DNA of 63,824 nt, counting the filler, from Thermoplasmatota archaeon (GTDB lineage Archaea > Thermoplasmatota > E2 > JACPAO01 > JAHFTW01): the NCBI GenBank assembly GCA_041623215.1. It is 5 parts of 5 records of this genome, joined end to end, with 100 filler letters (N's around TTAATTAATTAA, not from the genome) between each part and the next. Parts side by side here need not be neighbours in the genome. Positions count along the whole stretch, not along the records: positions 13,942 to 27,767 come from JBFJXH010000042.1; 4 more parts are not named here. One strand, written 5' to 3'. The position numbers and the translations under genes were made by a program. This document shows positions 17,811 to 19,879 of this stretch, one piece after another. A model generated the notes under the pieces. That model was given only the letters and a program-made list of their open reading frames with translations. It ran no database searches and had not been told where the DNA came from. Each line of letters starts with the position of its first letter. Position 1 is the stretch's first letter.

Positions 17811-19727
17811 AGCGGCGACGGAGATTACGGCGCGGGCAGCATCCAGGTCCTAGAAGGGCTGGAAGCGGTTCGCAAGCGACCGGCCATGTACATCGGTTCC
17901 ACTGATGGGCGAGGCCTGCACCACCTTGTGTACGAAGTGGTGGACAACAGCATTGACGAGGCCTTGGCCGGCCACTGCACCAACATTACCGTCAGCTTGC
18001 TCGCCGATGGCGGATGTCGAGTCGAAGACGACGGTCGCGGCATTCCGATTGACGAGCACCCCAAGTACCACAAGCCCGCCCTGGAAGTGGTTCTAACCAT
18101 CCTGCACGCCGGTGGCAAGTTCGACGAATCCAGTTACAAGGTAAGCGGCGGTTTGCACGGCGTCGGCGTGAGCTGCGTTAACGCCCTGAGCGAACGCTTG
18201 TCCGCCCGCGTGAAGCGCCAGGGGAAATGGGTCCAAATGGACTTCGAGCGCGGCGTTCCATCCACTGGCTTGGAACTCTTGGGCGATGCCGGGGACGAGA
18301 CCGGAACGGAGGTAACCTTCTACCCCGATCCCCAGATTTTCGAAACGTTGGAATGGGACTTTGACACCCTGCAAAACCGCTTGCGCGAACTGGCGTTTCT
18401 TAACGCCGGCGTCCACATTACCTTCAAGGACGAACGAGACGAAACCGAACCCCGGACCGAGCGCTACCATTACGAAGGTGGCGTGTCGGAATTTGCGGCC
18501 TGGATTAACCGCAACCGCAATCCGCTGCACCCTGAGGTGCTTCACTTTGAGGGAACCAAAGATAAGGTTAGCATTGAAGTGGCGCTCCAATACACGGACG
18601 GCTACAACGAGAATGTGTTCACGTTTGCCAACAACATCAACACGCACGAGGGCGGGACGCACCTGGTGGGCTTCCGAGCAGCGCTGACGCGGACCCTCAA
18701 TGATTACGCGCGCAAAAACGACTTTTTGAAAGGCATGGAAGGCGGCCTTTCTGGGGATGATTGCCGGGAGGGCCTAACCGCCATTGTATCGGTGAAGATT
18801 CCTCAACCCCAGTTCGAAGGCCAAACGAAGACGAAGCTGGGCAATTCAGAGGTCAGGGGCATTGTGGAAACACTTCTCAACGAGCGCCTTGGCGACTTTC
18901 TAGAAGAGCATCCGGCGCCAGCCAAGATTATCATCGACAAGGCGCTCATGGCGCAGCGGGCGCGTGAAGCTGCCCGCAAGGCACGGGACTTGACCCGCCG
19001 AAAGAACGTCTTGGAAGGGGGTGGCTTGCCCGGCAAATTAGCCGATTGCCAAACGCGCGACCCCGCCGCCAGTGAAATCTACATTGTGGAGGGTGACTCG
19101 GCCGGTGGCTCAGCCAAACAGGGCCGCGACCGGGCCACGCAGGCAATTCTTCCTCTTCGCGGTAAGATTCTCAACACAGAGCGCGCCAGACTGGACAAAA
19201 TTCTTCAAAACAAAGAAATTCAGGCCTTGATTCAAGCCATCGGCACCAGTATCGGAGAAGACTTCGATCCCGAAAAGGCCCGCTATCACAAGATCGTGAT
19301 TATGACCGATGCTGACGTTGACGGCGCTCACATTCGGACCCTACTTCTGACGTTCTTCTACCGCTACATGGGCGCCCTCATCGAGAAGGGCTTCATCTAC
19401 ATCGCTCAGCCACCTCTCTACAAACTCAAGAAGGGCAGCCAAGAGCGCTACGTCTACAACGATGCTGCCAAGGAGCAGGCACTCATTGAGATGGGTGTGG
19501 AGGACGGCAAGAAGATTAGCGTCCAACGCTTCAAAGGGTTGGGCGAAATGAACCCGACCCAACTATGGGAAACCACAATGGACCCCGAATCGCGCACCTT
19601 GCTACAAGTCACGATTGACGACGCCGTGTTGGCCGACGAGTTGTTCACCATTCTGATGGGCGACCAAGTGGAACCACGCCGCGAATTCATTGAACGCCAC
19701 GCCCTGGAAGCGGAGGTGGACGTATGA
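17808..19727 (+). CDS. gyrB: DNA gyrase subunit B
   Basis: [67 protein letters not shown]. Confidence 0.98.
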
Positions 19728-19879
19728 GCACGCCCACGACGCGGCCGAGCGAAGATCCCAACCGACGGGACTGCCGCGAGTGCGGTCGAGAATTACCGCG
19801 CTGGCGCGCGTCGTCCCGCTGTGAATACTGCGTGGGCGAATCAAAGGGGCGCGACCTGGACGAGGAGGGCGAAGACTGA
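19724..19879 (+). CDS. Unannotated 51-aa C4 zinc-finger microprotein between gyrB and gyrA
   Basis: [55 protein letters not shown] overlap with gyrB stop, TGATG overlap with gyrA start, GGAGGTG SD upstream. Confidence 0.8.

Follow-up and report, generated by a model that had tools for sequence, protein, structure and literature searches.

Organisation of the gyrB-gyrA locus

The window analysed here, a stretch of 63,824 nucleotides (filler included) from the genome of a Thermoplasmatota archaeon, joins five contigs through N spacers at positions 13842-13941, 27768-27867, 41409-41508 and 55007-55106, across which adjacency is not real. The genome itself (G000) is represented by a 1.94 Mb assembly that has a GC content of 62.7% and is 88% complete. 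On contig C42 the gene order is smc-scpA-scpB-gyrB-ORF-gyrA, and the genes flanking the small ORF were assigned to GyrB and GyrA using Pfam. All features of the window given below lie on the plus strand. gyrB occupies positions 17808..19727, its start probably being the GTG at 17808 (the longest ORF runs from 17742), and gyrA, which encodes 889 aa, occupies positions 19879..22548.

Direct translation of positions 19724-19879 yields a 51-aa protein, P0001. The ATG of this ORF (19724-26) shares bases with the gyrB TGA (19725-27) to form ATGA, its TGA (19877-79) shares a base with the gyrA ATG (19879-81) to form TGATG, and a Shine-Dalgarno (SD) sequence, GGAGGTG, lies at 19712-19718, 5 nt 5′ of the ORF ATG. 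Cysteines 17, 20, 33 and 36 of P0001 make up a C-x2-C-x12-C-x2-C motif (19772..19831; chance approximately 4e-4), a predicted metal site, and the protein terminates in the acidic tail DLDEEGED. These elements had been reported in a first-pass annotation and all of them were found again in the sequence; its description of the gene as hidden no longer applies, as the exact protein is already present among the NCBI and Logan gene calls. We also noted an SD-like GGAGG at 19864-19868, absent from that annotation, 10 nt 5′ of the gyrA ATG. The second junction (19864..19881) is composed of this GGAGG, the 10-nt spacer and the TGATG overlap with gyrA, and the spacing equals that in relatives having a direct TGATG junction. 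The same nucleotides double as codons of the acidic tail, GAG GAG GGC coding for E-E-G. Six of the last eight residues of P0001 are acidic, compared with 0-3 in the other relay peptides described below, and thus only part of the acidic tail is due to the SD. The whole insert is spanned by two Logan contigs with 5 and 7 differences; both come from one marine-metagenome study, possibly the one from which the assembly itself derives, and they therefore count only against a scaffolding artefact.

The gyrB promoter (17780..17810) has a TATA-like TTATA and, directly behind it, a tract of 30 nt in which purines and pyrimidines alternate, the sole alternating run of at least 22 nt in G000. At most loci of the family (L179-L208) TTATA immediately precedes an alternating tract of 22-40 nt, and the tract reaches at least 18 nt at 23 of 27 loci. 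The 5′ leader of the relatives appears to have been lost in G000, so that the tract is left with a GTG at its end. We regard the tract as a candidate supercoiling-sensing promoter. The earlier proposal of a two-layer control system, in which a Z-DNA promoter would act together with the small ORF, was not upheld by the distribution of the two features, the tract being found at 23 of 27 family loci and the four-Cys ORF at one; judged on this comparison, the promoter tract is independent of the ORF and is conserved without it.

gyrB-gyrA junctions in related genomes

We recovered 33 gyrB-gyrA junctions, comprising that of G000, 25 from other genomes of the family, five from genomes of the order that belong to different families, and two from the class; the junctions of G008, G009, G012, G020, G028, G042 and G045 lie outside this set. 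gyrB and gyrA overlapped or were no more than 11 nt apart in 23 of the 33, including the same-genus genome G001, and in direct junctions it is gyrA that uses the SD within the final codons of gyrB. The context GGAGGTGGA.GTATGA/TCTGATG, for example, directly starts gyrA in relatives such as G002, G004, G010 and G017. A wider sample of the phylum consisted of 87 loci, 11 of which had no gyrB in the stretch, leaving 76 (G035 is common to both sets); the gap was at most 20 nt at 69 of these 76 junctions and longer at seven. The four-Cys ORF was found at none of the 32 junctions of relatives and at none of the 76 phylum-wide junctions with gyrB upstream. Direct overlap of gyrB and gyrA is, on this comparative evidence, the ancestral state. 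Because 23 of 33 junctions are direct or nearly so, the SD and ATGA at the end of gyrB (19712..19727), which are now those of the small ORF, would be the old start signals of gyrA. The first-pass annotation had counted the strong SD and ATGA in favour of the ORF, a point that loses its force because in relatives these signals belong to gyrA. Over all gene pairs of G000 the commonest spacings were -4 (152 pairs) and -1 (47 pairs).

The other 10 of the 33 junctions had gaps of 44-151 nt, and all ten of these gaps contained an ORF of 16-51 codons, here termed a relay ORF, that linked the stop codon of gyrB with the start codon of gyrA. The number of relays expected among ten gaps was 3.1 when the ends were kept and the frame was free, 5.9 when both ends and length were kept, and 1.9 when the whole gap was shuffled; the product under the null with fixed ends and length was 0.003. 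A metagenome scan of 35 loci added two family-like loci, L069, which has a 47-aa relay between gyrB and gyrA, and L085, which has two chained relays of 24 and 34 aa (GTGA/ATGA/GTGA, 0-170 nt past the gyrB stop). In L085 the SD/stop/start junction is triplicated and each relay terminates in a copy of the junction. When single inserts were counted under a stricter window, with L069 included and L085 left out, 11 of 11 were relays compared with 2.98 expected (tail 2.6e-7), a window that was chosen after the junctions had been seen and a tail that overstates the case because G043, G044 and G047 are sister taxa. No motif is common to the relay peptides, and the ten other than P0001 have 0-2 Cys. 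Genomes bearing inserts were scattered on a quick tree (8 of its 30 rows less than half filled), requiring 8 changes, at least 6 of which were forced by well-supported branches.

Duplicated gyrB-end sequence was seen in G015 and L085, and retention or duplication of the junction ends by itself accounts for part of the relay signal. Outside the family the excess was smaller: 6 of 21 Rokubacteria-type gaps were relays compared with 3.9 expected (p 0.09), as were 3 of 6 gaps in other members of the phylum Thermoplasmatota compared with 1.6 expected. Across the genome of G000 relays filled 25 of 463 gaps compared with 13.2 expected, a count made with a crude gene caller and including ordinary small genes. 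On these figures the relay rule is strong for this junction in this family but is not universal, and is weak elsewhere. The suggestion that the ORF might be a coupling device setting GyrA:GyrB stoichiometry, one of the options raised initially, has gained support, as a relay ORF was kept by every insertion at the junction within the family.

Other passengers were also seen between gyrase genes. On the metagenome contigs L068 and L089, gyrB- and gyrA-like genes in divergent orientation are separated by 519 nt, a gap filled by an ORF that we take to be RNase H-like. Further gyrB-gyrA passengers were a 130-aa ORF that overlaps both genes (L352:737-1129) and ORFs of 243, 112 and 87 aa (L249, L303 and L362); the 130-aa product is presumably receiver-like and the 243-aa product TPR-like, the 112-aa and 87-aa products being of unknown type.

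Repetitive and single-copy inserts

The insert in G047 is one copy of a palindromic repeat family of approximately 70 nt (L063, L158-L177). In BLAST searches of both strands, matches to the repeat numbered 63 in G047, 45 in G043 and 8 in G022, whereas G044 and G000 had none. We retrieved 20 of the higher-scoring other loci in G047, of which 4 were between convergent and 16 between co-oriented genes. Twelve of the 16 copies in co-oriented gaps formed relays, in various frames, compared with 1.1 expected when the frame was free and 2.9 at the same length; these 12 relays are frame-sensitive, only one surviving deletion of 1 nt and three surviving deletion of 2 nt. The inserts of G022, G015 and G003 are single-copy, although that of G022 has a 20-21-nt piece in common with G018 and G043. 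The insert in the window is likewise single-copy (best other match E 0.056), and no intergenic 16-mer occurred in more than two of 833 gaps in G000. RNA structure was not detected in it (z -0.46).

Coding potential and homologues of P0001

A CxxC-x(8-20)-CxxC pattern was present in 3.7e-4 of the stop-free 50-codon windows generated with an intergenic Markov model (30,000 windows); when the insert itself was shuffled, the fraction was 2.5e-5 (40,000 shuffles). The synonymous codon score of the ORF was 0.114, compared with a gene median of 0.124. Among 3000 off-frame stretches 2.8% attained this score, as did 25 of 760 intergenic ones; the full codon score of the ORF (0.003) was below that of 98% of real-gene stretches, and one repeat-derived relay exceeded it on the synonymous score (0.159). 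The Atlas recognition value of P0001 was 2398 (mark 2300), which does not establish that the gene is real, and a single-sequence AlphaFold model was of low confidence (pLDDT 61). The 51-aa ORF is probably a genuine gene and is likely to be translated.

No homologue of P0001 was identified among approximately 15 billion proteins, where it forms a one-member cluster, and searches against same-length and longer proteins returned P0001 itself or nothing. A phmmer search of 1.84 billion representatives gave two non-self matches, both to repeat proteins lacking the four-Cys motif; there were no matches to NCBIfam, and a single match to the PDB had an E-value of 0.81. GyrA and GyrB of G000 are likewise singletons at 90%, and thus there is no close relative in which selection on P0001 could be tested. 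An order-wide search gave matches in 16 of 38 genomes at E-values up to 0.1, which we considered as homologues and judged to be noise or generic zinc ribbons. One of these matches lies at L035:1204-1860 (G041), and also at L037 (G046), where a 218-aa membrane protein contains an internal CxxCGRxLPxWR-x5-CxxC finger that resembles P0001; no orthologue of it was found in G000, and the gene downstream of it is presumably seryl-tRNA synthetase-like.

Several phage-type proteins bore a partial resemblance to P0001. NinF (PF05810) gave 11.1 bits (E 0.4), short of the Pfam cut-off of 27.5 bits, and NinF clusters in the Atlas scored 0.92-0.93 with 148-151 shared features, where family members typically have 170. 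PHROG 54 and PHROG 10853 matched at E-values of 0.003 and 0.024, respectively, and a search with PHROG 10853 gave no match at E 0.01 across 38 genomes including G000. Gp51 of Rhodococcus phage Shagrat, a 55-aa protein with the identical x12 spacing, matched P0001 at E 0.5 and PHROG 10853 at E 0.0045, and is itself a singleton. Viral contigs contributed one generic four-Cys match and no hit in an exact motif scan, and plasmid matches had E-values of 0.05 or worse, six of eight lying under unrelated genes. By these scores none of the phage-type look-alikes is significant, all being at or near noise, and the four-Cys ORF is, as far as these databases extend, an orphan confined to one marine archaeon.

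Small four-Cys proteins were found elsewhere in G000, with the pattern present in 24 of 8214 ATG ORFs of 30-80 aa. Four of them, of 43-63 aa and located on contigs C1, C25, C32 and C66, are alike and share the pattern Y/F-C-x2-C ... H ... D ... S-C-x-C-x2-C; from this shared pattern they constitute a paralogous microprotein family.

Comparison of P0001 with YacG and with zinc ribbons of DPANN gyrase operons

E. coli YacG is a small C4 zinc-finger protein with an acidic tail that inhibits gyrase, and it had been put forward as a possible parallel to P0001. The first-pass annotation remarked that the spacing differs, which is correct (C17, 20, 33 and 36 in P0001, C9, 12, 28 and 32 in YacG). An ungapped alignment of P0001 with E. 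coli YacG was not significant (E 0.17, 8 of 32 identities); it pairs Cys17, 20 and 36 with YacG Cys9, 12 and 28, and DLDE with DLGE, while Trp27 of P0001 falls one position off YacG Trp17 and YacG W40 is aligned to Glu. In the available part of PMC10886550 a Trp of YacG is described as inserting into GyrB, the residue number being unstated. The fourth YacG Cys and the Trp past DLGE are without counterpart in P0001. The YacG family (PF03884) was not found in 38 genomes of the order, with the positive controls E. coli and Caulobacter both detected, and in Pfam YacG did not match P0001 at E-values up to 1. On these comparisons P0001 is not YacG. In E. coli, yacG adjoins zapD and coaE and is not in a gyrase operon. 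A complex prediction for P0001 with the C-terminal 245 aa of GyrB and 460 aa of GyrA gave 0.13 and 0.00 (mark 0.32), values that are uninformative either way.

In DPANN genomes, zinc-ribbon genes are found next to those encoding gyrase. Within the order of G271 a zinc-ribbon ORF was present at 28 of 30 loci, and at 15 of the 30 it lies between gyrB and gyrA; at least three CPxC zinc-ribbon subtypes could be distinguished (L371-L400), two of them between gyrB and gyrA, together with paralogues away from gyrase. The phylum of G049 has a second family (L301-L330, L332-L366), which is located upstream of gyrA and frequently follows an ScpB-like gene. This microprotein of approximately 50 aa has a conserved C-P-x-C-x(17-20)-C-V-Y-C-G, is often ATGA-coupled to the ScpB-like gene, reached the cut-off of no Pfam family in the one member tabulated, and appears distinct from the gyrB-gyrA zinc ribbon. 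The L29-like, Nop10-like and ScpB-like labels at DPANN loci are our presumptive assignments. P0001 scored -0.3 and 0.8 bits on profiles of the two families, with 556 and 345 of 1000 Cys-fixed shuffles scoring as high; on the gyrB-gyrA profile (-0.3 bits) 80 of 169 genome decoys also did so. An hhalign comparison with the DPANN zinc ribbons gave a probability of 6.9%. The second profile (the family upstream of gyrA) had no match in 38 genomes of the window's order. By these measures P0001 is unrelated to the zinc ribbons of DPANN gyrase operons.

Discussion

We propose, with a probability of about 65%, that the ORF is a captured four-Cys microgene that persists as a translational relay and is likely a passenger with no gyrase-specific role. 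A 51-codon ORF would have been inserted, in this lineage specifically, between formerly overlapping gyrB and gyrA genes. Ribosomes terminating on gyrB would then restart at the old gyrA start, with its SD and ATGA, and translate the insert, and a second restart at gyrA through the new SD and TGATG would keep synthesis of GyrA and GyrB coupled and preserve the supply of A2B2. In Haloferax volcanii, the available part of PMC10666635 reports reinitiation to be reduced by 40-60% at a spacing of 13-14 nt and to be about zero at 22-23 nt, and a bare gap of 151 nt would thus be expected to uncouple gyrA. Any insert that provides the relay geometry might be tolerated, here by happenstance a small four-Cys gene that would have been captured from elsewhere, possibly from a mobile source.

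The relay reading has to be weighed against the possibility that the ORF is not meaningfully translated or is dispensable, gyrA starting de novo and the geometry being a by-product of junction-end duplication. The duplicated gyrB-end sequence of G015 and L085, the 5.9 of 10 relays yielded by the fixed-length null alone and the GGAGG inside the insert, 10 nt 5′ of gyrA, are all compatible with this explanation, which we nonetheless think decidedly unlikely, as all 11 inserts at the junction and 12 of the 16 copies of the repeat, of differing lengths, are in frame and stop-free. Duplicated ends leave the frame unset, and in-frame relays therefore tell against a by-product; the four-Cys motif is, moreover, rare by chance. 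Slightly more credible, though still unlikely, is that the ORF is retained because its peptide, a microprotein of C(P)XCG-like or phage type, has a function of its own that is unrelated to gyrase, with coupling providing expression. The motif fits the loosely defined C(P)XCG-like class as delimited in the available part of PMC11241148, small four-Cys ORFs are numerous in G000, and NinF clusters, PHROG 54, PHROG 10853 and Shagrat gp51 look weakly alike; against this, P0001 has no homologue by which purifying selection could show, and, as noted above, PHROG 10853 was absent from all 38 genomes and the look-alikes were at or near noise.

Very doubtful is the proposal that P0001 is a recently acquired gyrase modulator, whether a YacG-like inhibitor or an accessory subunit, made 1:1 with GyrA and GyrB. 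It can draw on a real-looking four-Cys motif with an acidic tail, on the partial register of the non-significant YacG alignment and on the unrelated zinc ribbons beside gyrase genes in DPANN genomes, but the YacG residues without counterpart in P0001 weigh against it, as do the absence of the four-Cys ORF from the junctions of 32 of 32 relatives and the unrelated inserts that fill the same site in nine other genomes. Given these nine inserts, a position between gyrB and gyrA needs no special explanation. The first-pass annotation, which had raised an accessory subunit or inhibitor as an option, named among its own grounds for refutation a lack of conservation of the ORF and its Cys pattern, and this is what was found (0 of 32 relatives, 0 of 76 phylum junctions). 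P0001 is, from sequence comparison, probably not a gyrase inhibitor. A modulating role would matter more than a relay, since the words "inhibitor" and "YacG" are absent from the available part of a review of archaeal DNA topology (PMC11894792), but the evidence for it is weak. On that reading the relay rule would turn gyrBA into a landing pad, each new microgene being expressed 1:1 with gyrase from the outset, and recruitment of unrelated four-Cys microproteins next to gyrase genes would have happened at least three times in archaea, here and in the two DPANN families; we hold it scarcely probable that P0001 is an archaeal gyrase modulator gained at a junction open to any insert that stays in frame.

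The junction, which belongs to an essential archaeal operon, amounts to a natural experiment: a dozen unrelated insertions there are bridged in frame without exception, which lends comparative support to the view that termination-reinitiation coupling of GyrB and GyrA is under selection. Relay ORFs of archaeal gyrBA operons were not described in the openly accessible literature searched. The case also carries a caution. An ORF that fills a gap may have a strong SD, fit perfectly through ATGA and TGATG and encode an acidic tail, and these features do not by themselves indicate that the peptide acts on its neighbours.

Among known systems, YacG resembles P0001 in its small size, four Cys, acidic C-terminus and a superficial ungapped alignment, but differs in its x2-x15-x3 spacing, compared with x2-x12-x2, and in the lack of a family match; it is also described from proteobacteria in the available part of PMC10886550, whereas P0001 is a singleton. 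The C(P)XCG-like class is haloarchaeal and, in the available text of PMC11241148, admits variants without Pro or with one Gly; P0001 is similarly shorter than 70 aa and has two CxxC knuckles (CRECG and CEYCV), one followed by Gly and neither with Pro, although the class is defined by a motif and is not a homologous family, and no named member matches P0001. Since 5 of 14 tested members of the class were zinc-free (same source), the metal at the putative site of P0001 is not predictable. Like P0001, the DPANN zinc ribbon is encoded by a small four-Cys gene between archaeal gyrB and gyrA, but those proteins are conserved in many genomes; their tails are basic and their spacers 18-26 residues long, compared with an acidic tail and a 12-residue spacer in P0001. 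With the termination-reinitiation pairs described in the available part of PMC10666635 the locus shares ATGA/TGATG overlaps, an SD in the upstream gene and products that are heteromeric subunits (here GyrA2B2), the difference being that coupling would pass through an intervening micro-ORF and so require two reinitiation steps. Mycobacterial interspersed repetitive units (MIRUs; Supply et al. 1997, as summarised in PMC12548453) are short elements at operon junctions; stop/start overlaps couple their internal ORF to the neighbouring genes, so that an insertion has little consequence for the gene downstream. The relay ORF in the window likewise overlaps the upstream stop and the downstream start, at a junction that was ancestrally direct, and the palindromic repeat of G047 and G043 forms junction relays in the same manner, a likeness drawn by description only. 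The host here is an archaeon, however, and the insert in the window is single-copy, non-palindromic, unstructured and encodes four Cys; judged from its sequence, it is a relay by architecture and not a MIRU-type repeat. The repeat of G047, G043 and G022 is, on the same kind of evidence, an archaeal MIRU-like element, and would extend MIRU-like relays to the archaea.
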